From the IMG/VR virus record IMGVR_UViG_3300014204_000113, positions 1-64,000 of that record: a stretch of DNA of 64,000 nt, one strand, 5' to 3'. The notes under the pieces are model-generated. The model worked only from the letters and a program-made list of their open reading frames with translations. It did no database searches and was not told the origin of the DNA. The stretch is from a virus (taxonomy: Duplodnaviria > Caudoviricetes). Of the stretch, positions 21,731-45,661 are shown in pieces; within the stretch, counting starts at the first letter, position 1, and each line of letters starts with the position of its first letter. The position numbers and the translations under genes were made by a program.

Positions 21731-22135
21731 ATGAAAAAGAAGGAATTTCAATTGGATAAAAGAAACTACCTAAACAAAACCAAACCTTTGCAAGAAGCGA
21801 TATCATTCTTTGAAAGGGGTGATAGTAAATTATATGCTGGTGAAGCCGACCTATCAAAAATAGATAATTCTTTAATTAGTAGATATATCGATACAACCAA
21901 AAAAGAAATATGGTATTATTTCAATAGGCTAATTGTACCTAGGCCATTAAGAGGCCAAGGATTATCTAAAATATTATTACAGAGGGTGGTTAATTGGGCA
22001 GATGAAAACAAAGTAAATATTTGGCTTGAGATAAATCCTTACGGACCTCTGAATATGACACAATTGACAAAATTATATTCAAGATATGGATTTACTGAGG
22101 TTAAACAAGGCTTGATGATAAGGAGAGTGAAATAA
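21731..22135 (+). CDS. GNAT-family acetyltransferase
   Basis: RLIVPRPLRGQGLSKILL..LYSRYGF. Confidence 0.85.
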   Translation: MKKKEFQLDKRNYLNKTKPLQEAISFFERGDSKLYAGEADLSKIDNSLISRYIDTTKKEIWYYFNRLIVPRPLRGQGLSKILLQRVVNWADENKVNIWLEINPYGPLNMTQLTKLYSRYGFTEVKQGLMIRRVK

Positions 22136-22512
22136 TGATAAATAAAAAACAAATAGAAGAAATAATGAGACTCAAAGATGTTCTTAAAGTTGAAGTTGAA
22201 AAAGAACAAACAACTATTTTAACTTCTGATATTTACATGGACAATATTTTGTTAGGTAGATATAAAATAATCTTAAAACCTTATAGTGGAGAAGAAAATA
22301 ATCCCTATATAATACGGCTTGATGCCTTTATAAATGTTATCTTCAGCCATCTTTCCAATGCAGCTATTGTCTATGACAGGTTGCAAGATATCATTCCGTC
22401 ACCTGAACTTGAGGAACAAAAACAAAAGGTGATTGAAGTGCAAAACGAAGCGTTAAATGTTTTCAATCTGATGATTGATGAAAGAGAAGAAAGAAAGGAA
22501 AAAGATAAATGA
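22135..22512 (+). CDS. hypothetical protein
   Basis: start overlaps upstream stop. Confidence 0.65.
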   Translation: MINKKQIEEIMRLKDVLKVEVEKEQTTILTSDIYMDNILLGRYKIILKPYSGEENNPYIIRLDAFINVIFSHLSNAAIVYDRLQDIIPSPELEEQKQKVIEVQNEALNVFNLMIDEREERKEKDK

Positions 22513-30815: not shown

Positions 30816-31175
30816 ATGTCTTACGATATCTCACTATGTGACCCAATTACCAAGAAGGTTTTACACTTTGAAGAGCCACATGACATGAAAGGTGGGACTT
30901 ATGCACTTGGCGGTACAACAAAAATGTGGCTAAATGTGACATATAACTATGTTCATATATTCAGAAAAGTCATCGATAAAGAAAAAGGTATCAGATTCCT
31001 TTATGGTCTGACCGGAGAAAAATCAATTCCTATTCTTGAAAAGGCTATGAGTCAATTAGCAGATGATATTGATGATGACTATTGGAAGCCGACAGAGGGT
31101 AATGCAAAGGAAGCCTTGAAGAATCTATTAATCTTAGCACAAACAAGACCTGATGGGATTTGGATGGGAGATTGA
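30816..31175 (+). CDS. conserved phage hypothetical protein
   Basis: MSYDISL..GGTYALGGT..LNVTYNY..DYWKPTEGNAK..RPDGIW. Confidence 0.8.
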   Translation: MSYDISLCDPITKKVLHFEEPHDMKGGTYALGGTTKMWLNVTYNYVHIFRKVIDKEKGIRFLYGLTGEKSIPILEKAMSQLADDIDDDYWKPTEGNAKEALKNLLILAQTRPDGIWMGD

Positions 31176-31179
31176 ATCT

Positions 31180-31953
31180 ATGAAAAACAATCCAAAAGCA
31201 AAATTTTGGAAGCTTACACCAAATCAAAAACACACCGTAAACATTTTGCCAAAAGAGGGTCATCAATTATTGCATGATTATTTTATTACCAATCATAAAA
31301 CGGGGAACGAGAATAAGAATTTGGGAGAAGAGATAAGACAAGTTGTTGATTATAAAAATGACCTTTTTGGTTATACTAAAGAAGAAATGGCTCAGATAGA
31401 ACCAATGCCAAGGTTTGGCGATTATGCAAACGAACTTGGTGGAAACTGGGAAATACATGATGACACCATAAGAAGAACAATACCAAGAATTAATTGGGAA
31501 CAAATAATAAATAAAGAAAATTGGGAAGAATGGCATTTTGAAGGATACAAACTTTTCCATACTACAGAATTTAAAAGATGGAGTCTGCATCACGATTTTG
31601 ATATTATTGGACATATGCCTTATGACATACCAATAGAAAAAGCCTTCGCATGGGCAGAAGAACATATTTTCTCTAGAGATATTCATAATGTAAAAACCAT
31701 AAAAGAATCAGGAGGTAATCCAAACATCATGGCCGAAAAAGAACTACCCATCAATGTCACGCTGGAAAGAGCCAAGATTGTCAATGAGTGGGTTCCTAAA
31801 GAAATAAACGATTATAGAAGATTGGCAAATCGCTGTTCTGATTTGTGGAATTGTGACTTAAGTACAAAAGACGCGGAACAGCTTATCGAAGAGGTTTTTA
31901 TTCGCCTCAAAGAAGAGAGGATAAAGCCGAATTTCTTCAAACATCGAAGTTGA
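31180..31953 (+). CDS. hypothetical protein
   Basis: long ORF; GGAG RBS before ATG 31180. Confidence 0.65.
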   Translation: MKNNPKAKFWKLTPNQKHTVNILPKEGHQLLHDYFITNHKTGNENKNLGEEIRQVVDYKNDLFGYTKEEMAQIEPMPRFGDYANELGGNWEIHDDTIRRTIPRINWEQIINKENWEEWHFEGYKLFHTTEFKRWSLHHDFDIIGHMPYDIPIEKAFAWAEEHIFSRDIHNVKTIKESGGNPNIMAEKELPINVTLERAKIVNEWVPKEINDYRRLANRCSDLWNCDLSTKDAEQLIEEVFIRLKEERIKPNFFKHRS

Positions 31954-31958
31954 GTCTG

Positions 31959-32045
31959 GTACAAATTTTTGTACCCTCTTGAAAAAATAATTTCAAGAAA
32001 GCGAAGAAATTTCTTGACAAGCCAACCATAAAAATTTAAGATAAT
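31959..32045 (+). promoter_or_regulatory. operator plus promoter of the ubiquitin-like operon
   Basis: GTACAAATTTTTGTAC..AAAATAATTTCAAGAAAG..TTCTTGACAAG. Confidence 0.7.
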
Positions 32046-32065
32046 TTCATAAGGAGGACAAACGA

Positions 32066-33385
32066 ATGTGGTTCATGCTTGACAATCACCTTGACGCAGA
32101 AAAAATCTTGACCAAGGCTTTAATACCCACTCTGCTTCACACAATCACCACCCCAAGAGAAATCAAAGGGTTGGCTTTCCCGGAAGAAGAAAAAGACAAG
32201 GTGCTCAAACTTCTGAAATTGGAAGAAAAAACTTGGGCGACGGTTAGAACCAACGATGACAATATTCTCCTTATGGAAGCACAAGGAAGGGTCGTCAAAA
32301 TTGGCGGTCATCTTCAAACTTGGGATGAATTTTCTGGAGTTTTAGAAGAATACGCAGAATTGCTAAATGTTAAAATAGTGGTTTCAAATCCACATGTGAA
32401 TCAAATTATAGGAAAAGGAGTAACTTTAGAACCAGAGGCAGAAGAAGGAACTTTGTTTATAAAATTCTATGCCTCCCCTGAAAAAACCAAAGCAAAATCA
32501 TACAAAGAAGTTTTCGGTTTTAAATTAGGAACAAGTCAAAGCGATGGAGTAGAGCCTTCCGGTCAAGGACAACCAATTATTGACCCTTCTTCTGAAACCA
32601 CCATCGCAGAAGTAATTGGTGACAGCCTTTATGTTCTATTCGATTTGCCTCATAATGACGGTTTGAAAAACAGCCAAGAAATTATGCGACAAATCATGGA
32701 ACAATATTCTCTTCTGCAAAAGTCGCCAGAAGAATTGAAAAAATGGCGAGAAGAAGCGAAAGAAAGAGAAGCGACCAAAACAAAAACTGCCTATGTTAAG
32801 GAGTGTTCAAAAAGATTAAAAGCAGTAAAGAATGAACTGATAGAGGATATTGAAGGAAATGAAAACGAACTAAACGCATTAGGGCAAAGAATTACTGAAT
32901 TGGTGAGACAAATTGATGAGAAGAAGAAACAACTCTTCGGTTTTGACGACCTTGGAGATAGGGAAGAAAGATTTTCTCAAGAATATGATAAGTTGTTAGG
33001 ATTGCCTCATGTCAAGAAAGTTTTGGTTGAAGAGGGCAAGGTTAAAGTTTTCACCAATACTATCTTTCTTGAAAGTGATGGCAAGGTCTATGAAATGGGG
33101 GATTATCGCATTGACATTCCTACACAAGACACCAATTTAAAAATCGCCAATCTGAGGATGGAAGAGTTGACTGGGCAAACATATTTCCACCATCCTCATG
33201 TTTCTGGAAATAAAGATGGCGCAACTCCTTGTTTGGGGAACATTTCAGAAGGTGTTATGCGTCTAATTGGTGCATATGAATTTTCAGTAGTGGCACAAAT
33301 TCTCATTGAATATCTACATAGCAATAGATATCAAGACGAATTGACAACTTACTGGAAGCCAATAAAGAAAGCAAAAAGGGCGTAA
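32066..33385 (+). CDS. prokaryotic E2-like (UBC-fold) protein with N-terminal domain and coiled coil
   Basis: HHPHVSGNKDGATPCLGNI motif; first gene of the E2-JAB-E1-Ubl operon. Confidence 0.7.
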   Translation: MWFMLDNHLDAEKILTKALIPTLLHTITTPREIKGLAFPEEEKDKVLKLLKLEEKTWATVRTNDDNILLMEAQGRVVKIGGHLQTWDEFSGVLEEYAELLNVKIVVSNPHVNQIIGKGVTLEPEAEEGTLFIKFYASPEKTKAKSYKEVFGFKLGTSQSDGVEPSGQGQPIIDPSSETTIAEVIGDSLYVLFDLPHNDGLKNSQEIMRQIMEQYSLLQKSPEELKKWREEAKEREATKTKTAYVKECSKRLKAVKNELIEDIEGNENELNALGQRITELVRQIDEKKKQLFGFDDLGDREERFSQEYDKLLGLPHVKKVLVEEGKVKVFTNTIFLESDGKVYEMGDYRIDIPTQDTNLKIANLRMEELTGQTYFHHPHVSGNKDGATPCLGNISEGVMRLIGAYEFSVVAQILIEYLHSNRYQDELTTYWKPIKKAKRA

Positions 33386-33417
33386 ATGAAATTAAAGATA
33401 AATAAAAGGAGGAACAA

Positions 33418-34242
33418 ATGAAAATTGAATCGGTAGTTCCAATCATTGCCATAACCCCAGACGCCAAGGCAAAATTAGATGCCTATATCGGCATCTGCAA
33501 AGAAGAAATTAGTGGTTTGGGTGTTGTAAGGAGATTGCCACAATGGAAATTCCTTATTGAAGACATCATTCTCTTTTCCCAAGAAGTGACGGCAGGAACG
33601 ACAAACCTTGATGAAGAAACCCTTCACCAATTTTTGACCGAAGCTGTGGAACAAAATTTGGACCCATCGGTTTTAAAATTGTGGTGGCATAGCCACGTCA
33701 ACGGGTCTTGCTTTTGGTCTGGAATTGACACTGGGACTATTAACAAGGCGTTATTAGGTGACGATTGGATGTTATCTATTGTAGGCAATAAAAAAGGCGA
33801 ATACAAATGCCGTCTTGACACCTACGATCCAGTCCGCATCGCCTTAGATGAATTATCCTTGCAGTTGCAGCAAACAACTGATGTCGGCCTTTGGAAGCAA
33901 TTGAAGGCCGAAGTTAAAGAAAAGGTGAGAAAAAAGAAATATACCACATATCAAGGTGGTGGTGGAATTTGGGAAAAAGGAAAGGTTTGGGATAAAAAGA
34001 ATTATAAGTGGGCGTGGCCGGATGAAATTGATGAGACCGATGAAAACGACCAACCCATCCTTCCCAAACATTCTTCAAAGAATTCTTGCGGGGAATGCAA
34101 GGATTTTCTTGAAGGAAAAAAAACTTGCAAACAAAACTTTGCCAGTGGAAAATTTATGGCTGCTTGCAGACTATTTGAACCTATCCAAATAGGCGAAAGT
34201 GAAGAAACAAAAGAACAAGACTTGCAAGTGGGGATGGTTTAA
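33418..34242 (+). CDS. JAB/MPN+ (JAMM) metallopeptidase with Cys-rich tail
   Basis: EISGLG..WWHSHVNGSCFWSGID. Confidence 0.88.
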   Translation: MKIESVVPIIAITPDAKAKLDAYIGICKEEISGLGVVRRLPQWKFLIEDIILFSQEVTAGTTNLDEETLHQFLTEAVEQNLDPSVLKLWWHSHVNGSCFWSGIDTGTINKALLGDDWMLSIVGNKKGEYKCRLDTYDPVRIALDELSLQLQQTTDVGLWKQLKAEVKEKVRKKKYTTYQGGGGIWEKGKVWDKKNYKWAWPDEIDETDENDQPILPKHSSKNSCGECKDFLEGKKTCKQNFASGKFMAACRLFEPIQIGESEETKEQDLQVGMV

Positions 34243-34904
34243 TGGTAAATCAAGAACCCGATTTTTGGAGGCAGTTTGACATTCTTCGGCCTACCGACTT
34301 AGAATTCCCTGTTCATATGGGAGGTTGTGGAGGTATCGGATCGCCCACTGCTTTGGCTATGGCGAAAATGGGGTGTAAAGATATGACCTTACATGACCAT
34401 GACACTGTGGAAAACCACAATTTACCCAATCAGATTTACCGATTGACAGACGTGGGAATGTTCAAGGTGGAAAGTTTGGCCAAAACCATTGAAGACTTCA
34501 CTGGTGTAATACCAAAAACTTCCCTCGAAAAGATAACTGCCGATTCAAAATTGGTCGGGTTAGTAGTGTCTGGGGTTGATTCTATGGCAGCTAGGAAAGA
34601 AATTTGGCAAGCCATCAGATATAAAACGACAATCCCTTTGTATGTGGATGCCAGAATGGGGGCGGAAGTTTGTCGCATCTATTCCATCAGGCCGACTAAT
34701 CCCATTGATGTAGCGATGTATGAAGGGACGTTGTATGATGATGCAGAAGCCCAAGAATTGCCTTGCACGGGCAGAAGCATTATCTACAATGTATTTATGA
34801 TCGCGGCATTGATTTGCAGTCAAATCAAGAAATTTGCTCGTGGACAAGAGTTCAATAAAGAAGTTATCTTTGATTTGGTTACATTGATGTGTTTGACTGA
34901 GTGA
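34242..34904 (+). CDS. ThiF/E1-like ubiquitin-like activating enzyme
   Basis: GCGGIGS, DHDTVENHNLPNQ, GVDSMAAR, DARMG; candidate catalytic Cys in ELPCT. Confidence 0.92.
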   Translation: MVNQEPDFWRQFDILRPTDLEFPVHMGGCGGIGSPTALAMAKMGCKDMTLHDHDTVENHNLPNQIYRLTDVGMFKVESLAKTIEDFTGVIPKTSLEKITADSKLVGLVVSGVDSMAARKEIWQAIRYKTTIPLYVDARMGAEVCRIYSIRPTNPIDVAMYEGTLYDDAEAQELPCTGRSIIYNVFMIAALICSQIKKFARGQEFNKEVIFDLVTLMCLTE

Positions 34905-34967
34905 AACTATCAACTTTAAATAAATCTATCATGAGAATAGGAGGAAAATAAAAGGGATAACAAACAG

Positions 34968-35153
34968 ATGTTTATCAAGGTGGTGTGGAAGGGGAAAGTA
35001 ACCGAAGTTATCCTTCCCCAAAATGGGACAACGGGAGATGCGTTGAAAGCGGCCCAAATCCCATCAAGTCAAGTAACTGGAATAACCGTAACCGGAGTTC
35101 GCTGCTGCGCTGATACCCAATTGAGACCTGACGACGCGGTTTACGCAACTTAA
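34968..35153 (+). CDS. ubiquitin-like (beta-grasp) protein lacking C-terminal GG
   Basis: MFIKVV..TTGDALKAA..TQLRPDDAVY; similar to the next ORF. Confidence 0.7.
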   Translation: MFIKVVWKGKVTEVILPQNGTTGDALKAAQIPSSQVTGITVTGVRCCADTQLRPDDAVYAT

Positions 35154-35188
35154 CCATCAACCTTAAACAAAAAAGGAGGAATTAAAGC

Positions 35189-35395
35189 ATGTTCGTTAAA
35201 GTGGCAAAGTTGGGCGCGAAAGTGGAAGAAGTGAATCTGGCTACCGGGGCCACCGTGGGCGAAGCCCTGAATGTGGCGGGCGTCACCGGGGACAACATGG
35301 AGATGAAGTTCAACGGGATGGTGGTTCAGAAGGACACCCAACTCCATGCGGATGGCGTTTTGACCCTCGTAGGCCAGATCAAGGGCGGCGCATAA
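35189..35395 (+). CDS. ubiquitin-like modifier precursor (C-terminal GG-A)
   Basis: beta-grasp pattern ATVGEALNVAG..LHADGVLTLVGQIKGGA; strong RBS. Confidence 0.88.
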   Translation: MFVKVAKLGAKVEEVNLATGATVGEALNVAGVTGDNMEMKFNGMVVQKDTQLHADGVLTLVGQIKGGA

Positions 35396-35407
35396 TCTAA
35401 CCTAAAC

Positions 35408-35447
35408 CGGCAGCCTTGTGATGTTTGCAAGGCTGCCGAACCTTTTT
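35408..35447 (+). terminator. intrinsic terminator of the Ubl operon
   Basis: CGGCAGCCTTG/CAAGGCTGCCG followed by a T run. Confidence 0.75.
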
Positions 35448-35479
35448 AAAATTGGGAGAATCATTTGTATATTTGTATA

Positions 35480-35567
35480 TTTGTATATAAAAATCAGTGG
35501 TGAATGTTCTATCTAAAGTCAGACAGCTTTTAGAACCAAGTTCAAAGACTCCATCCCGAGTCTTAAA
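35480..35567 (-). ncRNA. TnpB3 omegaRNA core scaffold plus guide
   Basis: hairpins and AACATTCAC end at 35500; guide CACTGATTTTTATATACAAA. Confidence 0.7.
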
Positions 35568-36637
35568 ATATTAATCGCGGCATTGTGATCACGATCAATA
35601 ACTAAATTACAATGAGGGCAAGAATGAGTTCTAACAGACAACTCTTTATCAACCAAGTTATAACATCCAGAACACATCTTGCTGGTGTTTCTTGGATTTA
35701 CGAAGATTGTTTGTCTACCAGCATATTCTGCTTTGTATTTAACAAAATTCATAAATTGATTCCAAGCAACATTACTTATGGATTTTCTAATTCCTTTAAA
35801 GGTAGTTTGTTGCATACTTTTAATATCAAGTTTTTCAAAAACTATTATTTGATTTTCATTTATGATTCTTCTGCTGAGTTTATGTGCAAAATCTGTTCTT
35901 TTGTTTGTGATTTTAGAATAAATTTTAGCAACAATTTTCTTGAGTTTATTTCTTTTTCTAGAACATTTTTTCGCATTAGAAAATTTACTTTGATATCTTG
36001 CAAGTTTCTGTTCAGATTCTTTGAAAAATCTAGGATTAGGAATCTTCTCGCCATCAGAGAAAGTAGCAAAAGAAACAAGACCCACATCAATACCAATAGG
36101 TTTCTCAATATTTGGCAAAATATTCGTTTCAACTTCACAACTAAAACATGCAAACCACTTGTTTGTAGAATCTCTTCTGATAGTGAGAGTTTTAATCTTG
36201 CCCTCAATATTCCTATGTTGTTTGATTCTAACAGCGCCTATTTTAGACATCTTCAAAAACTTATCTTTAATCTTAAAGCCGCCTTGAGTAAATGTGAAAC
36301 TATTATACCTATCATAACCTTGAAATCTAGGATAACCGGGTTTATCGCCTTTCTTAACTCGTCTAAAGAAAGATTTAAAAGCTTTATCAAGTCTATTTTG
36401 TGCATCTCTAAGGCAATGAATATGAATATTTTCAAATTCAGGTTTTTCTTTTTTCCATTGAGGCAAAAGATTATAAGTATCATAAAGACTAAAACTTTTC
36501 TTTTCTTCTTCCCAGCTTTTCTTTCTAGTTTCAAGCGTTTTGTTGTAAATCCAGCGACAAGAATCAAGATAGGCTTGCAAAGATTTTTCTTGTTTACTAG
36601 TAGGATAAATCCTGAATTTAAAAGTTTTCATGCTCAC
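35519..36637 (-). CDS. tnpB: RNA-guided endonuclease TnpB, copy 3
   Basis: GIDVG / FEKL / DRDHNAAINI; close paralogue of copy 2; start GTG 36637 or ATG 36631. Confidence 0.95.
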   Translation of the reverse strand: MSMKTFKFRIYPTSKQEKSLQAYLDSCRWIYNKTLETRKKSWEEEKKSFSLYDTYNLLPQWKKEKPEFENIHIHCLRDAQNRLDKAFKSFFRRVKKGDKPGYPRFQGYDRYNSFTFTQGGFKIKDKFLKMSKIGAVRIKQHRNIEGKIKTLTIRRDSTNKWFACFSCEVETNILPNIEKPIGIDVGLVSFATFSDGEKIPNPRFFKESEQKLARYQSKFSNAKKCSRKRNKLKKIVAKIYSKITNKRTDFAHKLSRRIINENQIIVFEKLDIKSMQQTTFKGIRKSISNVAWNQFMNFVKYKAEYAGRQTIFVNPRNTSKMCSGCYNLVDKELSVRTHSCPHCNLVIDRDHNAAINILRLGMESLNLVLKAV

Positions 36638-36643
36638 ATCTAG

Positions 36644-36760
36644 ATTATAACATATGGAAAAAGACAATGCAAGCTAGTAGTTCAAATTTTTGTACTGAGG
36701 ATGAAAATAATTTGGTTTGAGTGAAAATTTTTCTTGACAAGGTGATTTTAATGATTTAAT
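36644..36760. promoter_or_regulatory. divergent promoters sharing one operator (36680-36695)
   Basis: minus-strand TTGCAT..TGTTATAAT for tnpB3; plus-strand TTGACA cassette for the second E2 operon. Confidence 0.7.
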
Positions 36761-36793
36761 ATGAACTAAGAAATTGATTTGCAAGGAGGTTTA

Positions 36794-37984
36794 ATGGAAC
36801 CAAAACCCGGCACCAAAGTAAAGTTATTAAAAACAAGTCGATTCTATAATCAAGCGCCTGATGAAATTGGAATAATTGTTGAAAGTGTATATGTTGATGA
36901 CCCTGATACTGATTGGTGCAAAGTACAATTTCCAAATAAAACAGACGCATATCGTTTCAGAGGAGAAGGAATAGACTTGGAATTAGCTGAAAAATGGACT
37001 TATAAAAAAGTTGGTGAATTAAAACCAAAAGATTTGGAAGATGAACAACCGACTTCTTGTGTATATAAGGATGGAATAGTCTTATTGTTACCAAAGAAGT
37101 TTTATGAACTATTTGAAGAAAAACAAGTTGAAATTACCGGACAAATAATTTCTTCTCATTGGGGGTGGCCAGCTAATGGGAAATTCCGTTTCATAAAAGA
37201 AGGTTGGCGTGGTTATTGGTATAATAAAGAAAAAGAATTTCTTGACGACCTTTTAAAAGCAATTGCCATCGCTAATGAAGAACCTTTTACTGAAATAAAA
37301 GAAGAAAACACATTGGAAAAAGCAATAATGGAAAAAGCAAAACAAGAACAGGAAGAAATTGATTTAAAAGAATCAAGGAACAGGTATGCAAAAGAATGTA
37401 CAAAAAGATTAAAAAACAAGAGACAAGAATATGAAAAAAGAATTAAAGAATATGAAGAAGAAACAAAAGAAATTTCTCGGCGCTTAGTTGAATTGACTAG
37501 GAATATTGATGAAAATAAAAGGATGGTTTTTGGTTTAAACGATCAAAAAGACCAACTTGAAAGATATAAAGAAGAATATGACAAGTTATCAGAACTGCCC
37601 CATGTTAGGAAAGTTTTGGTAAAAAATGAGAAAATAACAGTATTCACCGACACAATATATTTATCTTACGAAAATGAAACCTATGAATTAGGTGAATATC
37701 AAATAAATTTTGAAGGACAAGTTAGAATAATTAACGAAAGACCTATATTTAACCCAACCCATGGCACTAATGGACAATGGTTTCATCATCCCCATGTTTT
37801 TGAAAAAGATGGAAGCAATACTTGTTTGGGAAATATTACAGCAGGAATTCGTGAATTAGTAGGAAAATATGAATATGCAATAGCCACTGCAATTCTGATT
37901 GATTTTTTACATACTTGCAAATATCCTCATTATTTACAAAGGAATTGGAAGCCAATGGAGAAAAAGGAGGCATTATGGGCCTAA
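36794..37984 (+). CDS. E2-like paralogue 2 (different N-terminal domain, coiled coil)
   Basis: YAKECTKRLK..LPHVRKVLV..HHPHVFEKDGSNTCLGNI; clearly similar to the C-half of 32066. Confidence 0.7.
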   Translation: MEPKPGTKVKLLKTSRFYNQAPDEIGIIVESVYVDDPDTDWCKVQFPNKTDAYRFRGEGIDLELAEKWTYKKVGELKPKDLEDEQPTSCVYKDGIVLLLPKKFYELFEEKQVEITGQIISSHWGWPANGKFRFIKEGWRGYWYNKEKEFLDDLLKAIAIANEEPFTEIKEENTLEKAIMEKAKQEQEEIDLKESRNRYAKECTKRLKNKRQEYEKRIKEYEEETKEISRRLVELTRNIDENKRMVFGLNDQKDQLERYKEEYDKLSELPHVRKVLVKNEKITVFTDTIYLSYENETYELGEYQINFEGQVRIINERPIFNPTHGTNGQWFHHPHVFEKDGSNTCLGNITAGIRELVGKYEYAIATAILIDFLHTCKYPHYLQRNWKPMEKKEALWA

Positions 37985-38469
37985 TGGAATTGATCGCAGA
38001 AGGATTAGATGTTTCTGGAAGTTATTTTGATTGGAATAGTTTGCCTGTAGTTGAAAGAAAAGTAGTTTTGGTTGAACCAGAAAAATTCATTCATATGACA
38101 AACAGGGAAATGAAGTCAATTTTGAACAATTCTCTTGTAGAAAAAGTAGAAGAGAACAATTCATGCTATGGAATCGTTGCCCACATAAAGCCATTCACCA
38201 TCAAATATGCTGCCTATTTTGGAAAAGAACCAATGGAAATGAATAATGGTTGCAGAATTTTACTGAGAACAAGAGGAAAAGGTCCAATGGTAAAATTTTA
38301 TCATTATAGATATCCAGAAAGAATTGGTCATCATTATAATGTAAGGACAAATGGGGGTGTTTGTTTGAGAAATCTTGAAAAACCAATTTCTAAACTGCTC
38401 AAAGCAAAAGAATACGCGGTAGCACTTAGTTTGTTAATTGAATTTATCCAAGTATTTAATGGAGCATAA
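37975..38469 (+). CDS. E2-like paralogue 3
   Basis: GHHYNVRTNGGVCLRNL..EYAVALSLLIEFI. Confidence 0.55.
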   Translation: MGLMELIAEGLDVSGSYFDWNSLPVVERKVVLVEPEKFIHMTNREMKSILNNSLVEKVEENNSCYGIVAHIKPFTIKYAAYFGKEPMEMNNGCRILLRTRGKGPMVKFYHYRYPERIGHHYNVRTNGGVCLRNLEKPISKLLKAKEYAVALSLLIEFIQVFNGA

Positions 38470-38499
38470 ATCAACCAACTAAATAAGGAGGAACAAAAA

Positions 38500-38949
38500 A
38501 TGCCAAGGTATCGAGTAACGGAAAAGATTTATCGCGATTTGGAAGTGAAGCAATACGGCATCCAAGTGTTTGACGTGGAGGCTGATAACGAAGGTGAAGC
38601 TAAAGAGATGTCTTCAGATGAAGGCGAATTGGTCTCTGAAACTTGGGAACCTGTAGCACAAGAAAAAATGGAAGAAGCCATAAAAGAAGCTGATGAAGAT
38701 GATTATCATGACTATGACGAAAACATCAGCGTCGTCCAAATTGGTGGTTCTTCCACAGACCATATGTTTGTCAAAGTGGTCTACAAAGGCAAAGTGGATG
38801 AAGTGATGATTTCTCGCGGTGGCGTCATCAGGGAAGCGTTAGGTGCCGCGAATATCTCTTCAAGAGATGTCATCAACCTCACTGTCACCGGCATCGCTTG
38901 TTGTCTGGATACTGAATTGCGCCCCGATGACATGGTTTATGTGGACTGA
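38500..38949 (+). CDS. acidic domain fused to a GG-less ubiquitin-like domain
   Basis: C-terminal MFVKVVYKGKVDEV..TVTGIACCLDTELRPDD matches 34968-35153. Confidence 0.75.
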   Translation: MPRYRVTEKIYRDLEVKQYGIQVFDVEADNEGEAKEMSSDEGELVSETWEPVAQEKMEEAIKEADEDDYHDYDENISVVQIGGSSTDHMFVKVVYKGKVDEVMISRGGVIREALGAANISSRDVINLTVTGIACCLDTELRPDDMVYVD

Positions 38950-38951
38950 TT

Positions 38952-38983
38952 TAATGGGGTCGTATTAAGCGACCCCATTATTT
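38952..38983 (+). terminator. intrinsic terminator
   Basis: TAATGGGGTCG/CGACCCCATTA. Confidence 0.7.
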
Positions 38984-39016
38984 AACTAAAAGGAGGAAAA
39001 ATATGATATTGAAGTT

Positions 39017-40276
39017 TTGAAAGTTGTTCTAGAAGAAGAAATGCAATCAACATTCGCAATCAAAGGTGTCCGCAAAGATAAGAATTTTAAACCTAACTAT
39101 AAGACAATTGATAAAATAAAATCAAAATATGATTCTGTCTATCTTGAAATATCAGATTACAACATTAACAAAACCCAACTAAATACAGGATACACTAGCA
39201 GAAGTTTTTTGTCTAATGGCTCTAACATTTTCTATATGGCACCAACTATGGCACCAGTGGACTATAATCCTCAATTTCCTAACTACCTTGAACATCCAGA
39301 AACTTGTTTTGAATATTATCGCCAAAGAGGAATAACCCATCTGATAGGCGAAGAAAAATACATGGGAAGCAGAGCAGAATTGCTCATATTTAAAGACAAA
39401 GAAAAAGCAAATATGATGGGATATGAACATCCAGTAATTGTCAATTCTCGCTCTGGTTATGAATTTTTTGATGATGAAGAAACTAAAAATAAAATTCACG
39501 ATGATATAAAAGATAAAATGAAGGGAATATGTGACTTCATCATATTAGATGCTGAAATCATGCCCTGGAATTATAAGGCTGATAAATTAATAATAAAAGA
39601 ATTTCTTTCACCTATAGAATCAACTTTGCTATCAAGAAAATATACTGATAAAGGTTCATTAGAAAATGCATGGAAGGCTTTGCTTTCGCTTGGAAGGTTT
39701 TCAAAAGAATCACCAATTGAAATAAGACCTTTTCATATATTGGCAAAAGGCAGTGTCGTTGAAAAGAAAGGAAAAAGAATATTTTCAAATGTTGAAGTTG
39801 GTTTTTTAAAAAATCATATTCAACATATGACAGAAATCGAATCTCTTACAAAGAATGGAATTATTTTTAAACCTTGTAAATGGCATTGTTTTGATTTGAA
39901 TGACCAATATCTAAGAAACGAATCTATTAAAAAATGGGAAGAATTTTGCCAAATAGGTGAAGGTTTTGTTTATAAACCTTATGATTTCTTAAATTATGCG
40001 CCCAATTACCACCTGATTCAACCTGCTATGAAAGTCAGAGGCAAAGAATATTTGAGGATAATTTATGGAATTGACTATCTTGAACCTGAATGTTTTCAAA
40101 GACTTACCCATAGACACACCATAAGAAAGAGAATTTTGGCCATCCAAGAGCAAGAATTGGCAATAAAAATCTTGCTTTCCTTCCTGAAAGGGAATAGAAT
40201 AATGAAAGAAAAATTTGTGGCAGCTTTCATAGGAATGGAATCAGTAAACATGGCGAATATTGACGCTACGTTATAA
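39017..40276 (+). CDS. Pnkp-type RNA ligase (adenylyltransferase) domain, stand-alone
   Basis: LEHPETCFEYY, EEKYMGSRA, ILDAEIMPW, EGFVYKP, QPAMKVRGKEYLRIIYG. Confidence 0.85.
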   Translation: MKVVLEEEMQSTFAIKGVRKDKNFKPNYKTIDKIKSKYDSVYLEISDYNINKTQLNTGYTSRSFLSNGSNIFYMAPTMAPVDYNPQFPNYLEHPETCFEYYRQRGITHLIGEEKYMGSRAELLIFKDKEKANMMGYEHPVIVNSRSGYEFFDDEETKNKIHDDIKDKMKGICDFIILDAEIMPWNYKADKLIIKEFLSPIESTLLSRKYTDKGSLENAWKALLSLGRFSKESPIEIRPFHILAKGSVVEKKGKRIFSNVEVGFLKNHIQHMTEIESLTKNGIIFKPCKWHCFDLNDQYLRNESIKKWEEFCQIGEGFVYKPYDFLNYAPNYHLIQPAMKVRGKEYLRIIYGIDYLEPECFQRLTHRHTIRKRILAIQEQELAIKILLSFLKGNRIMKEKFVAAFIGMESVNMANIDATL

Positions 40277-40342
40277 TTATGCTAATAGTAACCATTATCA
40301 TAATAGCTTTACTTTTATCTATATTCCATAGTGAGTGAATAA

Positions 40343-40810
40343 ATGGCGTCGATTAAAAAATTAATGAAAATAGACAGAGAGATTTCAAATTGTATTGATG
40401 ATAGAGAAATCAATTTTATTGAAGCAGAGAATATAATCTCTACAATTTGTGAGAAACTTAATTTACCAAAGATGACAATTAAATTTTGTTTTTATGAAAA
40501 GAAAGCTGATTGGTTTTTGAGAAAATTATGCAGATTTTTCAACAAAGAAAAACTTTGTGATTTGTATGAAGAAAAAATAGGAAAAAGAAGATTAAGAGTT
40601 GGAGAAGCATATCATGAAATAAATTATATAGTATTATATTCTTCTGGTCAAAATATTAGTACACTATTGCATGAGATTGCTCACTTATTGCCAAATGGAG
40701 TTAATCATGGGAAGAATTGGATAAAGAATTTTAAAGAAGTAGTGAAAATATATAACAAGGAAATTTCAATATGCGCCTGTCGCCAAGCGGACATGGCAGA
40801 AGACTTCTAA
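40343..40810 (+). CDS. HEXXH zinc metalloprotease-like (SprT-type) protein
   Basis: TLLHEIAHLL..NHGKNW. Confidence 0.65.
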   Translation: MASIKKLMKIDREISNCIDDREINFIEAENIISTICEKLNLPKMTIKFCFYEKKADWFLRKLCRFFNKEKLCDLYEEKIGKRRLRVGEAYHEINYIVLYSSGQNISTLLHEIAHLLPNGVNHGKNWIKNFKEVVKIYNKEISICACRQADMAEDF

Positions 40811-40855
40811 TCTTCCGGGGAACCATCGGAGGTTCGAATCCTCCCAGGCGTGCCA
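40773..40855 (+). tRNA. tRNA-Arg(UCU)
   Basis: GCGCCTG/CAGGCGT acceptor stem, GAAGA-CTTCTAA-TCTTC anticodon arm, GGAGG-TTCGAAT-CCTCC T arm, encoded CCA. Confidence 0.9.
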
Positions 40856-40888
40856 TAATATAAATTCTCAAAGTTAAAGGATAAACGA

Positions 40889-41443
40889 ATGCACGAATTT
40901 GGATCGGGTCCAATCTTTGATGTTGGTGTTTATATCGGAAGATTTAATCCTATTCATAAAGGACATCAAAGAACAATTGAACAGATGATGTTTAATCACA
41001 CTATCAACCATTCTTTATTAATGATTGGTTCTCCAAATGTAAATCTTTCTTTAAGAAATTTATTTACATATAAAGAGCGTAGAGATTTTATAAAAGCAAT
41101 ATATCCAAATATTAGAATTGCTCCATTGCCAGATCAAATATCAGATGAAGATTGGTTTTCTTCACTAATAGATATAATTGAAATATCTTTTCCATTTTAT
41201 CATAATGTGAACATATATTGCGGAGATATTAAAGATTTAGAACACTTTAATTATCATAACAAAGCAACCGTAAAAATTATAGATAGATATGAAGAGCAAG
41301 TATATTCTGCTACAGAAGTAAGGCGTTGTATTATGATGGGTGAAATTGAACCACTAACTAAACTGATACATCTTGATTTATTATATCCAGTTTATGAGTT
41401 AGGAAGGAAAAGACTTGAAGAAATGTTAAGAGGAGAAAAATAA
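40889..41443 (+). CDS. NMN adenylyltransferase (NadM-like cytidylyltransferase fold)
   Basis: GRFNPIHKGH, IGS..NLFTYKER, SATEVR; in an operon with NAMPT. Confidence 0.85.
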   Translation: MHEFGSGPIFDVGVYIGRFNPIHKGHQRTIEQMMFNHTINHSLLMIGSPNVNLSLRNLFTYKERRDFIKAIYPNIRIAPLPDQISDEDWFSSLIDIIEISFPFYHNVNIYCGDIKDLEHFNYHNKATVKIIDRYEEQVYSATEVRRCIMMGEIEPLTKLIHLDLLYPVYELGRKRLEEMLRGEK

Positions 41444-42273
41444 TGGGCAAAGAACTTAAAGCAGAAAACTTAACTATTAGCGTCCCCAATGTGGGTTGTG
41501 ATAAAAACTGTCCTTATTGTGTAAGCAAAATGACTGGATATATAAAATCAGATATTGTTAAAATGAATATGAATATAAAAAAGGTTATAAATATTTCACA
41601 AATAGCTGAAGTTACTTCTGTCTTATTTACTGGTAAAGGAGAGCCAACTTTAAATTTTGAAGCAATAGAACAGCTTTCTTTCAATTTTAAAAATCTATTC
41701 CCATTAGAATTACAAACAAATGGGGTCTTTTTATCTAAAAATCTAAATAAAGTTGATTCTTTATTAATTCAAGGGTTTGATATAATAGCGATATCAATAG
41801 ATACAGAATTACAATTAGAAAATTATCAAAAGCTATTTAAAAAAATAATTGATTTAAATATGATTTGTAGATTAACCATCAACATCACAAATAAACTTGA
41901 TAAAGAATTCACATTTGAAAAGACGATAAAATATTGTACTGAAAATGGAATACAACAATTAACTTTAAGAAGAGTAGCAATCCCCCAAAAACCATTAGAT
42001 AAAAAAGTGGTTGGTTGGATCAAAGAAAACGCTCCTCTTGATTTATATGAAAATGTAATGAGGGATGTTTTTCTAATTATAAAAGAAAAAGGCAATTTAA
42101 TCAGAATATTAAATCAAGGGACAAAAATATATGATATTGATGGCGTTTCTTTTACTTACTCTGATTATTGTTTACAAGAAAAAGACAATGGAAATAATAT
42201 TCGATCATTAGTCTTTCAGGAAGATGGACATTTATACACTTCTTGGGCTTCTAAGGCGTCAATTTTATTTTAA
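41443..42273 (+). CDS. radical SAM protein
   Basis: CDKNCPYC, TGKGEPTL, LQTNG. Confidence 0.9.
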   Translation: MGKELKAENLTISVPNVGCDKNCPYCVSKMTGYIKSDIVKMNMNIKKVINISQIAEVTSVLFTGKGEPTLNFEAIEQLSFNFKNLFPLELQTNGVFLSKNLNKVDSLLIQGFDIIAISIDTELQLENYQKLFKKIIDLNMICRLTINITNKLDKEFTFEKTIKYCTENGIQQLTLRRVAIPQKPLDKKVVGWIKENAPLDLYENVMRDVFLIIKEKGNLIRILNQGTKIYDIDGVSFTYSDYCLQEKDNGNNIRSLVFQEDGHLYTSWASKASILF

Positions 42274-42285
42274 AGGAGAAAAATA

Positions 42286-43668
42286 ATGATAAATCAAATC
42301 TTAAATACAGACTCATACAAACTTTCTCATTTTCTTCAATATCCACCAAACACAGAACAAGTTTCTTGTTACGTAGAATCTAGAGGAGGAAGGTTTAATA
42401 GAACCTTATTTTTTGGCTTACAAATATTTCTAAAAGAATATATGACAAAATTTATAACTAAAGAAGATATTGAACTTGCTAATCTTTTTAGTTCTGAACA
42501 TGGAGAACCTTTCAACATGAAGGGTTTTTTGGAATTACAAGAGTTGGGTTATTGGCCTGTACAAATTCAAGCAATTCCAGAAGGAACAATTATTCAAACC
42601 AATAATGTGTTGGTTCAGATAACCAACACCGACCCTAGATTCTATTGGCTACCATCTTTTCTTGAAACAATGTTATTGAGAGGAGTTTGGTATCCAACTA
42701 CTGTGTGTACTTTATCTTGGATGTGTAAACAATTAATCAAAGATTTCATGTTAAAAACTTCTGATAATCCAGACGATATCAACTTCAAATTACATGATTT
42801 TGGAGCAAGAGGGGCATCTTCATTAGAAACTGCATCAATAGGTGGTTGTTCCCATTTGGTTAATTTCATGGGCACAGATACTATGGTTGGTATTTTAGCA
42901 GCACAAAAATATTACAATGCCAAAATGGTTGGTTTTTCAATTCCAGCCGCAGAGCACTCTACCATCACTTCTTGGGGTGGAGTGGAAGGTGAACTGGATT
43001 CTTACAAAAACATGTTAAATCAATTTGCCAAACCTGGAAAAATAGTAGCAGTAGTGTCTGATTCGTACGATATATTCAAAGCTATTAAAGAATTATGGGG
43101 AGGACATTTAAAAAATAAAATAATTGACTCAAAAGCCACTATAGTGATTCGACCTGATTCTGGAAATCCAGTAACAGTAGTTAGAGATGTAATCAAAGAA
43201 CTGATGAATGTTTTTGGATACGAAACTAACACTAAAAATTATGATGTTCTTCCACCATATATCAGAGTAATACAAGGAGACGGAATTGAATATGATTCTA
43301 TCTTTGATATTTTAACTGAGATGACTAATTGTAAATTATCAACAGATAATATATCTTTTGGTATGGGTGGTGCTTTGCTTCAAAATTTAGATAGAGATTT
43401 TTTAAAATTTGCAATGAAAACATCTGCTATTAAAATAAATGGTAATTGGATTGATGTTTATAAAGACCCTATAACAGATACTACTAAAAGGTCAAAAAAG
43501 GGTAGATTGGCTTTATGTAAGAATAATATCAATCAGTTTATCACAATTCGTGAAAATGAAGCAATTGCTTTTGGCGCAGAAAATCTGCTAAAAGATGTTT
43601 ATCTTAATGGGAAAATTCTTCGTGAATTTGAGTTTGAAGAAGTCAGAAAAAACGCTTCTGGAAATTAA
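42286..43668 (+). CDS. nadV: nicotinamide phosphoribosyltransferase
   Basis: TDSYKLSH, LHDFGARG, SIPAAEHS, VSDSYD, IRPDSG, IQGDG, FGMGGALLQ. Confidence 0.95.
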   Translation: MINQILNTDSYKLSHFLQYPPNTEQVSCYVESRGGRFNRTLFFGLQIFLKEYMTKFITKEDIELANLFSSEHGEPFNMKGFLELQELGYWPVQIQAIPEGTIIQTNNVLVQITNTDPRFYWLPSFLETMLLRGVWYPTTVCTLSWMCKQLIKDFMLKTSDNPDDINFKLHDFGARGASSLETASIGGCSHLVNFMGTDTMVGILAAQKYYNAKMVGFSIPAAEHSTITSWGGVEGELDSYKNMLNQFAKPGKIVAVVSDSYDIFKAIKELWGGHLKNKIIDSKATIVIRPDSGNPVTVVRDVIKELMNVFGYETNTKNYDVLPPYIRVIQGDGIEYDSIFDILTEMTNCKLSTDNISFGMGGALLQNLDRDFLKFAMKTSAIKINGNWIDVYKDPITDTTKRSKKGRLALCKNNINQFITIRENEAIAFGAENLLKDVYLNGKILREFEFEEVRKNASGN

Positions 43669-43697
43669 AAATCGCAACTTAAAAGGAGGAACAAATC

Positions 43698-44174
43698 ATG
43701 ATGGTATTCATAATTTTGGCAAGTACGCTTATTTTGACTGTTTCTTGGTTGTATTTCTTAAAAAAGTATGGAGAAGGAACATATAACGAAACAAACGTCA
43801 CAGATATTCTATTTGGTTTTTCTGTTGTAGGATGGATAATTTCAACATTTACTTTGGTCACATTGCTTATTGTCTATACACACCATGCAACAAACTTGGG
43901 CACCATTCGCCAAGGATATTCTGTAGTTAAAGTCCAACAAGATAGGTTAAATAGGTTAAGAACCGATTTGACGCTTGTAAATGATTCTATCAAACAAGGA
44001 AATGTGGCTTTAGTCAACTCTGACAGCCCTATTAAAAGTTTAATAGACCAAATTGCTTTGGCTGAAACTTCTGTAGCAGAAGCCAATCTTAAAATTGCTA
44101 ATGCAGAAGTTAGTATCGCTCAACGTAAAGCTGGACCAGGATATTTTATTGTTTCTTGGTTTGGAGACAAATAA
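43698..44174 (+). CDS. membrane protein with coiled coil
   Basis: two TM segments followed by a helical region. Confidence 0.7.
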   Translation: MMVFIILASTLILTVSWLYFLKKYGEGTYNETNVTDILFGFSVVGWIISTFTLVTLLIVYTHHATNLGTIRQGYSVVKVQQDRLNRLRTDLTLVNDSIKQGNVALVNSDSPIKSLIDQIALAETSVAEANLKIANAEVSIAQRKAGPGYFIVSWFGDK

Positions 44175-44322
44175 CTTATGGAGGAAATTCAATCAATTTA
44201 TATTGGTAATGGAAAATTTATTCAATCCACTTCTAATCATCAATTTCTAACTGAATTTGGTTATAAAGAATTGAAAGATTTATCACCAGAAGAAATTTCT
44301 AATATCAAACGAAGAGAGGAAA

Positions 44323-44817
44323 ATGACTATGAGAAAATTTAAGAAATTCATTTGTTTTATCACTGGCATAACTTTAGTCAGATATATAAAAAGAAGGATT
44401 GAATTAAAGAAAGAATTGGAATTGATTTCAACCTTTCCTAAAGTTAAAAGCTTTCTTTTCAAAAAGAAAAATTTAATTGTTAAAACAATGCCGATTAAGA
44501 TGGACGGACACTTATTGGGTGATTTTGAAATAATCATAAAAACAAAAAATATATATGATGTTTTAAATATTCAAAATTTAACTGGGAAAAGAAGAATAAG
44601 AGACTCAATATATCACCATCCACATATTTGGTCTAGTTGGATATTAAATACAGAACCAACCTTTTGTCTAGGGAATATTTCAGTAGAAGTAAAATGGTTA
44701 ATTCAAGAAAAAGAATATTCCGCAGTCGTTCTTCTTCTAATCCAGTTTTTAGAAGAAGGATATGGTTGGGAAGAATGGGAAAAAGAAGAATGTCTATCTC
44801 ATTGGCCTGAAATATAA
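44323..44817 (+). CDS. E2-like paralogue 4
   Basis: LGDFEI..HHPHIW..FCLGNI..EYSAVVLLLIQFL. Confidence 0.65.
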   Translation: MTMRKFKKFICFITGITLVRYIKRRIELKKELELISTFPKVKSFLFKKKNLIVKTMPIKMDGHLLGDFEIIIKTKNIYDVLNIQNLTGKRRIRDSIYHHPHIWSSWILNTEPTFCLGNISVEVKWLIQEKEYSAVVLLLIQFLEEGYGWEEWEKEECLSHWPEI

Positions 44818-44829
44818 AGGAGGAATAAA

Positions 44830-45405
44830 ATGTATAACTATTATGATTTTACAAATGATTGTACGATTGGATATTGGTCAGCAACAGAAAACTTTTTTAA
44901 ACCAGAACTAGTTAAAAAAATCGAACCTATTAAAATTGAATTGTCTGCAAATGATTTAGAAATCATAAGAAGTTTTTCTGAAATTCAAGAAATTTCTCTT
45001 CTTAAAGATAAATTATCAATACTAACCAACATAATAAATATGTCAAACCATGAATTAGGACAATATCAAATTGAAATTAATAAAACTTTTGAAAAATATG
45101 ATGCCATAAGCGCGATATACATCTGCAATCAAACAAGAACTGTAGATGTAGACAAGTTTCATGACACTAATGGAAGTTTTGTTTTCCACCATCCTCATAT
45201 CTGGGCAAGAGGAGATAATGTTAAAAACACGGAAATTTGTTTTGGTAATATAAAAGAATACATTGAAAAAATGTTGATAGCAAAAGAACCTATCGTATTA
45301 ATAAGCACAATTTTGGAATATCTCAAGAATGGCTATGGATGGCGTCATAACAAAAAAGAATACTTGAAGTGTTGGCCTGAAGTAAATTCTTCGCCTCGTC
45401 TATAA
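44830..45405 (+). CDS. E2-like paralogue 5
   Basis: ELGQYQI..HHPHIW..ICFGNI. Confidence 0.65.
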   Translation: MYNYYDFTNDCTIGYWSATENFFKPELVKKIEPIKIELSANDLEIIRSFSEIQEISLLKDKLSILTNIINMSNHELGQYQIEINKTFEKYDAISAIYICNQTRTVDVDKFHDTNGSFVFHHPHIWARGDNVKNTEICFGNIKEYIEKMLIAKEPIVLISTILEYLKNGYGWRHNKKEYLKCWPEVNSSPRL

Positions 45406-45431
45406 GAATGAGACGATTTTTTAAGGCGGAT

Positions 45432-45484
45432 GGTACAAAAATTTGAACTTTTGTCTTGCACTAAGGATTTCTAAATTCTATAAT
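45432..45484 (+). promoter_or_regulatory. operator plus promoter with the same architecture as the tnpB promoters
   Basis: GGTACAAAAATTTGAACT (identical to the tnpB1 operator)..TTGCAC-N17-TATAAT. Confidence 0.7.
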
Positions 45485-45661
45485 AAAGAAGGAAATTTAT
45501 GCGATAATTGCCTATACATATTGTGGTCTATTTTTTCTATACATACATAATATAGGAAAGGCTAAATTTATGCTAGTTTTGACTTGCGCTATCTATAAAA
45601 TTAAAGTAAAATTATAATAGAGGCTTTTATTTTAAAATAGATTTAGTCTAAAGTTTTTATA

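Follow-up and report, generated by a model that had tools for sequence, protein, structure and literature searches.

The window analysed here, a stretch of 64,000 nucleotides, comprises the first 64 kb of the genome of phage IMGVR_UViG_3300014204_000113, which is complete (187,988 bp, with direct terminal repeats). Five E2-like genes were identified in it, together with genes encoding one E1, a JAB/JAMM peptidase and ubiquitin-like (Ubl) proteins. These genes probably constitute a phage-borne ubiquitin-like conjugation module in which the one E1 and one Ubl, designated Ubl2, serve several E2s that pick their own targets. A more specific version, an E3-free viral tagging network in which one E1 and one Gly-Gly tag supply five to six E2s, each with a different host, self or rival-phage target, is a tentative proposal and rather doubtful. 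In the literature searched, which did not extend to most subscription journals, the bacterial Bil, Bub and type II cyclic oligonucleotide-based antiphage signalling system (CBASS) operons are host defences against phages with one E2 per system, and no phage-borne multi-E2 system and no account of the present E2 family were found. Here, ubiquitin-like conjugation machinery is on the phage side and is expanded to several E2s.

The five E2-like proteins are encoded on the plus strand by the open reading frames (ORFs) E2-1 (32066..33385, 439 amino acids), E2-2 (36794..37984, 396 amino acids), E2-3 (37975..38469, 164 amino acids), E2-4 (44323..44817, 164 amino acids) and E2-5 (44830..45405, 191 amino acids). 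An earlier note, made from the sequence of this DNA, had described them as paralogues that share a motif and a following helix, with unrelated N-termini in the two large ones, and BLASTP analysis agreed with this description. E2-1 and E2-2 were 41% identical over the C-terminal 216 residues (E = 5e-54), a stretch that spans both coiled coil and core; no similarity was detected between their N-terminal regions. E2-4 matched E2-5 (4e-20), and E2-3 matched E2-2 (1e-05) in a region comprising the motif and the following helix. The shared motif was H-P-H (H-Y-N in E2-3) followed, after 7-13 residues, by C-[LF]-[GR]-N; it reads HHPH...CLGN in E2-2, HHPHIW...CLGN in E2-4, which ends in a GYGW tail, and H121-P-H with Cys137 (CFGN) in E2-5. 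In AlphaFold2 (AF2) models the Cys was followed by a helix in both E2-1 (Cys389, helix 391-402) and E2-5 (Cys137, helix 139-150). The most divergent copy was E2-3 (HHYN...CLRN), the start of which overlaps the E2-2 stop; it has Tyr for Pro, Asn for the second His and Arg for Gly, and lacks both the coiled coil and the C-terminal Trp segment.

From 1.84 billion cluster representatives, a profile of the five cores retrieved 2,234 proteins at a threshold of E≤1e-3 and 519 at 1e-10. The family Cys was invariant in three alignments, of 50, 115 and 40 members, in which the H, P, H, G and N positions were also invariant or nearly so. Since the core profile found this many proteins and the Cys was invariant in all three alignments, the paralogy is far beyond chance. 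Scans of the five proteins against Pfam, NCBIfam, PADLOC and PHROGs gave no family match, only coiled-coil noise, and megablast and tblastn searches of GenBank phages gave no match. Foldseek searches of BFVD returned weak matches only, to uncharacterised phage proteins.

Among 152 family representatives, 107 had the N-terminal domain of E2-1 (N-domain) joined to the core, an architecture that we regard as canonical. Another N-terminal region of at least 150 residues was present in 19, a short N-terminal region in 12 and no such region in 14; two cores were present in 10. Proteins with two cores, or with two N-domain/coiled-coil/core units, included P0039, P0043, P0055, P0067, P0072, P0090 (~645 amino acids) and P0005 (695 amino acids); the first unit of P0005 lacks the HPH...Cys motif. 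In a core-domain tree E2-4, E2-5 and a sixth copy, E2-6 (see below), fell in a well-supported clade (0.95) of short forms with unrelated metagenomic members, and E2-1, E2-2 and E2-3 were placed among the long forms with weak support. Recent tandem duplication was considered as the origin of the paralogues and was rejected on the basis of core identities of 23-46% and of the separate, old clade formed by E2-4, E2-5 and E2-6. The paralogues represent old subfamilies, not fresh duplicates.

The AF2 model of E2-1 had a mean predicted local distance difference test score (pLDDT) of 91.8 and comprised an alpha/beta N-domain (residues 1-200), a 74-residue helix or coiled coil (221-294) and a UBC-like core (296-433). 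The order within the core was a helix, a beta-meander, the HPH loop (H376-P377-H378), Cys389 and three helices. The same core stood alone in the model of E2-5 (pLDDT 86.4, predicted template modelling score 0.80). Foldseek searches of the PDB with both models returned almost only E2 enzymes (E 0.02-0.2). When VIA-align was used, E2-1 matched UBE2S (Z 7.4, 115 residues, root-mean-square deviation (rmsd) 3.8) and 201 chains reached Z≥5, nearly all of them E2s. An independent comparison of E2-5 with 48,161 PDB representatives, made without Foldseek, also gave UBE2S (Z 6.6, 123 residues, rmsd 3.6); the top 50 of these were almost all members of the UBC superfamily (E2, RWD, UEV, Cap2, CdnG-E2, Atg10, UFC1 and FANCL). 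With a 40-member family profile, the best match in the whole PDB was UBE2L3/UbcH7 (E 0.0015). In this alignment fhHPHvkkdgevCLG lay on IYHPNIDEKGQVCLP, with HPH over the E2 HPN motif and the family Cys over the Cys of GQVCLP, which we take to be the catalytic Cys86 of UbcH7. The Pfam UQ_con family was reached by one of 50 family members (2.9e-05).

The earlier note had made its proposal depend on the conserved Cys occupying a UBC active-site position, and the Cys was found there: the fold matches were to the UBC superfamily, and the profile alignment, in independent agreement, placed the Cys at that position. These results support the assignment of the five proteins as divergent members of the UBC superfamily with a Cys at the active-site position. 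The E2 family keeps the classical H-P-x...Cys site and could thus rank with the nearest prokaryotic or viral relatives of the canonical eukaryotic E2s.

The fold comparisons also bear on a non-catalytic role. A long coiled coil leading into a UBC-like or RWD head is found in the Mad1 C-terminal domain and in Knl1, and the E2-like proteins could likewise be RWD-like coiled-coil scaffolds with a structural or assembly function, their His and Cys binding metal or stabilising the fold. The Mad1 C-terminal domain was the first weak profile match (E 0.047), the Knl1 RWD scored on a par with E2s (Z 6.1-6.9), and the layout of a coiled coil followed by RWD agrees. However, the Mad1 and Knl1 domains are non-catalytic and lack the His...Cys pair, the deeper profile put UBE2L3 at the top with the active-site motifs aligned residue for residue, and the family was linked to JAB, E1 and a Gly-Gly Ubl in nine of nine other loci. 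A scaffold role is therefore considered highly improbable. Other non-catalytic RWD and UEV domains differ similarly from the phage family, in which the Cys is kept in all five paralogues and in every aligned member.

A sister phage, IMGVR_UViG_3300029288_001872 (189,632 bp), was used for comparison. It carries orthologues of all five E2-like genes, all of which were under purifying selection, with ratios of nonsynonymous to synonymous substitution (dN/dS) of 0.065 for E2-1, the most constrained, 0.15 for E2-2, 0.118 for E2-3, 0.21 for E2-4 and 0.36 for E2-5. The values for the E1, Ubl2 and JAB genes were 0.026, 0.02 and 0.067, respectively. None of the five looks like a decaying gene, so that inactivity through decay, which would have counted against the proposal of the earlier note, is not indicated.

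The sister phage has six intact E2-like copies. A profile scan of the genome analysed here revealed the five plus a partial match (22117-22290, E 1.4e-10), a sixth copy that the earlier note does not list. The partial match lies in a plus-strand ORF (22135..22512), residues 1-66 of which were 65% identical (4e-27) to the N-terminal half of the sister's intact, 164-amino-acid sixth gene, and residues 64-125 of which were 81% identical (7e-37) to the sister's next gene. This chimeric match pattern indicates that an in-frame deletion removed the HPH...Cys half of E2-6 and joined what is left, the N-terminal half of its core, to the C-terminal part of the following gene; both genes are intact in the sister. 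The relic is located just upstream of TnpB2.

These data are relevant to the possibility that E2-1 alone is a working E2. The additional paralogues, or some of them, would then be cofactors or regulators, E2-3 and the bare E2-4 and E2-5 in particular; they might pair with E2-1 as UEV/Mms2 does with Ubc13, hold the charged tag in reserve or tune chain formation. The constraint on E2-1, the strongest of the five, would fit such a role, as would the fact that no architecture but that of E2-1 is shared by all nine other loci, the departures of E2-3 from the motif and its lack of the C-terminal segment, the loss of E2-6 from a system that was retained and the scores of UEV and RWD folds, which were almost as high as those of E2s. 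However, the Cys and the first His are kept in all five proteins, although non-catalytic UBC-like domains normally lose them; all five are under purifying selection, and the short-form clade of E2-4, E2-5 and E2-6 keeps HHPH...C in its unrelated metagenomic members. On balance, a cofactor role for the extra copies is unlikely.

The genes encoding the presumptive partners of the E2s follow E2-1 on the plus strand. The JAB/JAMM peptidase (33418..34242, 274 amino acids) gave weak matches to AMSH-like proteases and Rpn11; its motif WHSHVNGSCFWSGID is intact, and the H-x-H...S-x-x-D residues align with the JAMM of AMSH and Rpn11. The E1 (34242..34904, 220 amino acids) is a single ThiF-type adenylation domain (PF00899, 2.4e-17), the nearest solved relatives of which are ThiF, MccB, MoeB and UBA5. 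Its Cys175 (ELPCTG) was invariant in all eight E1 sequences compared, from this phage, the sister phage and six other loci. The PADLOC "E1-E2" matches of this protein were partial and covered the Rossmann part only. As the earlier note had it, there is one E1: the genome scan gave a single ThiF/E1 match.

Two small Ubl genes come next. Ubl2 (35189..35395, 68 amino acids) gave a weak ThiS match, ends in ...QIKGG-A and is the candidate conjugatable tag. Among nine listed Ubl sequences from this phage, the sister phage and other loci, seven end in [KR]GG plus 0-2 residues; the other two, both from the most distant locus, end in KGN. Ubl1 (34968..35153, 61 amino acids, ending ...AVYAT) is beta-grasp-like, and a further gene (38500..38949, plus strand, 149 amino acids) encodes an acidic N-terminal region fused to a Ubl1-type beta-grasp domain. 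Both of these beta-grasp domains are related to Ubl2 and lack a Gly-Gly end. They also contain a vicinal Cys-Cys pair (...GVRCCAD... and ...GIACCLD...) and were under purifying selection (dN/dS 0.13 for both).

Outside the sister pair, nine loci were found in which the order was invariably E2(xN)-JAB-E1-Ubl, with N being 1, 2 or 3: a 193-kb phage, a Candidatus Saccharibacteria metagenome-assembled genome (MAG) contig and seven metagenome contigs. Every E2 copy in these loci keeps the canonical N-domain. The survey of related loci was small; a narrower alignment reached two viral loci, one genome locus and eight metagenome loci. In the Saccharibacteria MAG (L015:7062-10009) an E2-JAB-E1-Ubl(KGGH) cassette is flanked by L25/RF1/L31 genes and S2/EF-Ts genes and appears to be chromosomal, there being no obvious prophage genes nearby. 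Judging by this contig, the compact cassette also occurs in a bacterium of the candidate phyla radiation (CPR). The distant metagenome locus (L023:3264-13844) has three full-length E2-like genes, JAB, E1 and the two Ubl genes ending in KGN, one of which is a tandem double Ubl.

On the basis of these comparisons, the ancestral core would have been a four-gene cassette of E2 (N-domain, coiled coil and UBC core), JAB, E1 and Ubl, to which extra E2s would have been added in the phage lineage. The JAMM peptidase is predicted, from the chemistry of its family, to trim the terminal Ala of Ubl2 and so expose ...KGG. The single ThiF-type E1 would then adenylate Ubl2 and probably carry it on the loop Cys175, and each E2-like protein, with HPH in place of the classical HPN, would take over the tag on its invariant Cys. 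Each E2 would hand the tag to its own target lysine without a separate E3, as has been proposed for Bil, in which there is no E3 and the E2 would recognise the target directly (PMC11601596). The search for an E3 in this genome was a limited test, in which no zf-RING_2 match was found. Target choice by E2-1 and E2-2 might come from the N-terminal domain and a dimerising coiled coil, and that by the bare E2-3, E2-4 and E2-5 from the core surface or a partner. The targets might be proteins of the host, those of the phage itself or rival phages, and host takeover, counter-defence, self-modification and attack on rival phages are possible roles. Since Ubl2 ends in ...K-GG, trypsin should leave a Gly-Gly remnant on modified lysines, and standard ubiquitin-remnant proteomics should be applicable. 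If one E1 does charge all of the E2s and these have different targets, the module would be a small, tractable model of how target choice can evolve by E2 duplication and N-terminal change alone, and an independent viral parallel to the eukaryotic diversification of ubiquitin signalling.

The N-terminal regions of the large E2-like proteins differ. The E2-1-type N-domain, common in the family, is not present in E2-2. The E2-2 N-terminal region (residues 1 to ~170) is lineage-specific; within the length range searched its only relatives were its own orthologues. E2-3, E2-4 and E2-5 are nearly bare cores. A PDB-wide structural search with the full-length E2-1 model was filled by coiled-coil matches. 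Replacement or loss of the N-domain appears to be a mark of this phage lineage, and the presence of several E2s per E1 a recurring trait of the cassette. Substrate diversification by the E2 paralogues, the central suggestion of the earlier note, is a plausible hypothesis.

Several findings weigh against the proposed conjugation by several E2s. The best Foldseek E value was not below 0.02, and Z scores of 6.6-7.4 are middling and are no proof alone. All five E2-like proteins were below threshold for Pfam UQ_con (none at E≤0.1), the Asn of the classical HPN is His in this family, and E2-3 has neither the Pro, nor the Gly after the Cys, nor the C-terminal segment. E2-4 and E2-5 evolve faster than the other copies, and the loss of E2-6 from this phage implies that single paralogues are dispensable. 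In searches of the ESM Atlas, where neither gave a match, and in homologue searches, the N-terminal regions of E2-1 and E2-2 matched no known fold or family, and to call them "targeting domains", as the earlier note did, is a guess. The extra E2s in the nine other loci keep the same N-domain; duplication has therefore not always been accompanied by domain swapping.

The module was compared with known conjugation systems. The eukaryotic-type E2s UBE2L3/UbcH7, UBE2S, UbcH5 and Ubc13 share with the phage family the succession of helix, beta-meander, H-P-x loop, Cys and three helices. In contrast to them, the phage family has His for Asn, a near-invariant G-N after the Cys and extra strands, most of its members carry the 200-residue N-domain and coiled coil, and identity is 12-18%. 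Bil types I and II (10.1101/2023.09.26.559546, 10.1101/2023.09.04.556158, PMC11601596), which are classes 6d and 6c in Iyer et al. 2006, are similar in that four functions are on separate genes (BilA Ubl, BilB E2, BilC JAB and BilD E1) with no E3, the JAB trims a Ubl precursor, as is predicted for the phage JAB, and selection of the target is a proposed function of the E2. However, the Bil E1 is multidomain (IAD-AAD-CYS; 10.1101/2023.09.26.559546), whereas the phage E1 is a single ThiF domain of 220 amino acids. In class 6d the E2 has no upstream His but, on the other side of the Cys, a downstream His that is absolutely conserved (Iyer 2006, Table 1); the phage family, unlike it, keeps the upstream H-P-H, showed no invariant downstream His and had no Prok-E2 Pfam match. 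Class 6c has a CEHH signature, with Cys for the classical His that is present in the phage family. The gene order also differs, being Ubl-E2-JAB-E1 in Bil and E2-JAB-E1-Ubl in the phage cassette, and Bil, which defends bacteria, has a single E2, in contrast to the five to six of the present, phage-borne system.

Bub (class 6e/DUF6527; PMC11601596) is likewise an operon of E1, E2, Ubl and peptidase genes in bacteria, with very diverse Ubl and N-terminal domains. It differs in working through Ser/Tyr oxyesters, in having no conserved Cys in its E2, and in its DUF6527 serine protease and E1 fusions. In the phage family the Cys is invariant, E1 and JAB are encoded by separate genes, and no DUF6527 match was obtained when the module and neighbouring genes were scanned against Pfam. 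Type II CBASS Cap2/E2-CBASS (classes 6a/6b; 7to3, 8hsb) resembles the module in combining a UBC-like domain that has a catalytic Cys (structural match Z 5.6-5.8) with a ThiF-type E1 and a JAB. Cap2, however, is an E2-E1 fusion that conjugates a cyclase, whereas the phage E2 and E1 are separate genes, and family scans found no nucleotidyltransferase in the module. The module does not fit any of the classes 6a-6e in Iyer et al. 2006; it would work most like Bil without being a member of it.

The order of features on the plus strand is E2-1, JAB, E1, Ubl1, Ubl2, a hairpin, E2-2, E2-3 and the Ubl fusion, with the TnpB3 element, on the minus strand, between the hairpin and E2-2. The hairpin (35408..35438), which is intrinsic-terminator-like with a 14-bp stem and a T-rich tail, closes the E2-1 to Ubl2 unit and is also present in the sister phage. 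After the Ubl fusion come an RNA-ligase-type gene, a weak SprT-like gene, NMNAT-like, radical-SAM and NAMPT genes, an unknown ORF, E2-4 and E2-5. The RNA-ligase region (39007-40201) was replaced by unrelated DNA in the sister phage. Blastn comparison showed that window positions 31002-35454 and 36771-39006 are adjacent in the sister phage; the TnpB3 element (35455..36770) is therefore an insertion in the phage analysed here. Positions 40202-40871 and 44312-45594 are likewise adjacent in the sister, and the plus-strand cassette with the NMNAT-like, radical-SAM and NAMPT genes and one unknown ORF (40872..44311), which the sister does not have, is therefore an indel; it separates E2-3 and the Ubl fusion from E2-4 and E2-5. 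The earlier note had placed the five genes at three loci. They are indeed apart in this phage, but they belong to one ancestral module, nearly contiguous in the sister phage, that has been split by the two indels.

The TnpB3 element was recognised by the break in blastn collinearity and by Pfam matches of its tnpB gene (35519-36667, minus strand) to OrfB_IS605 and Cas12f1-like_TNB; as previously described, it lies between the E2-1 and E2-2 loci. Its insertion was clean and immediately follows the Ubl2 terminator, with TAAAATTG/GGAG at its left junction and AGAAATTG/ATTTGCAAGGAGG at its right one; the sister has the empty site, TAAAATTG/CATTGAAGGAGG (slashes mark the breakpoints). The far end of the element carries a palindrome (36680-36695) and an outward promoter (TTGACA-17-TAATAT, 36734-36762) that faces E2-2. 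In the sister phage E2-2 begins 17 nt beyond the tail of the same terminator, with no separate promoter; the outward promoter would restore E2-2 transcription.

A copy of the palindrome is also present upstream of E2-1, where GGTACAAATTTTTGTACC is followed by a sigma-70-like promoter (TTGACA-17-TAAGAT; 31959..32042, plus strand). The sequence GT[AT]CAAATTTTTGTAC thus precedes both large E2-like genes, 47-48 nt ahead of TTTCTTGACAAG, which agrees with the earlier claim that two of the loci are under the same operator; however, the palindrome is not E2-specific. About eight sites in the genome carry it (14707, 19193, 23961 (both strands), 31962, 36683, 45433 and 78475), in promoter-like positions and at the upstream ends of all three TnpB genes, and at three of them it is 47-48 nt ahead of a TTGACA box. 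The candidate E2-specific operator was rejected on the basis of this genome-wide distribution. The palindrome is a general element of the phage and may be a binding site for a phage regulator. A shared operator by design was also not upheld: the palindrome copy upstream of E2-2, like the promoter there, is part of the TnpB3 insertion, and insertions explain the layout.

The accessory genes in this region are relevant to a further possibility, namely that the extra E2-like proteins are decoys or inhibitors that soak up foreign E1 or Ubl from a host or rival-phage Bil, Bub or type II CBASS. The neighbours include the NMNAT/NAMPT pair, TnpB elements and a GIY-YIG endonuclease, and the bare forms lack any extra domain, both of which would suit such a function. 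A phage NMNAT/NAMPT pair is usually read as nicotinamide adenine dinucleotide (NAD)-salvage counter-defence. However, the proteins are paralogues of the phage's own E2 and come from one ancestral operon with its own E1, JAB and Ubl, they keep catalytic residues that a pure decoy does not need, and they resemble Cap2 and CdnG-E2 no more closely than they do eukaryotic E2s. A decoy function is accordingly judged quite improbable, and conjugation by several E2s that share one E1 and Ubl2 remains the preferred explanation.

Directly 3' of E2-5 is a homing-endonuclease-like gene (45662-47053) with GIY-YIG and helix-turn-helix (HTH) domains, which is preceded by the palindrome copy at 45433-45445.

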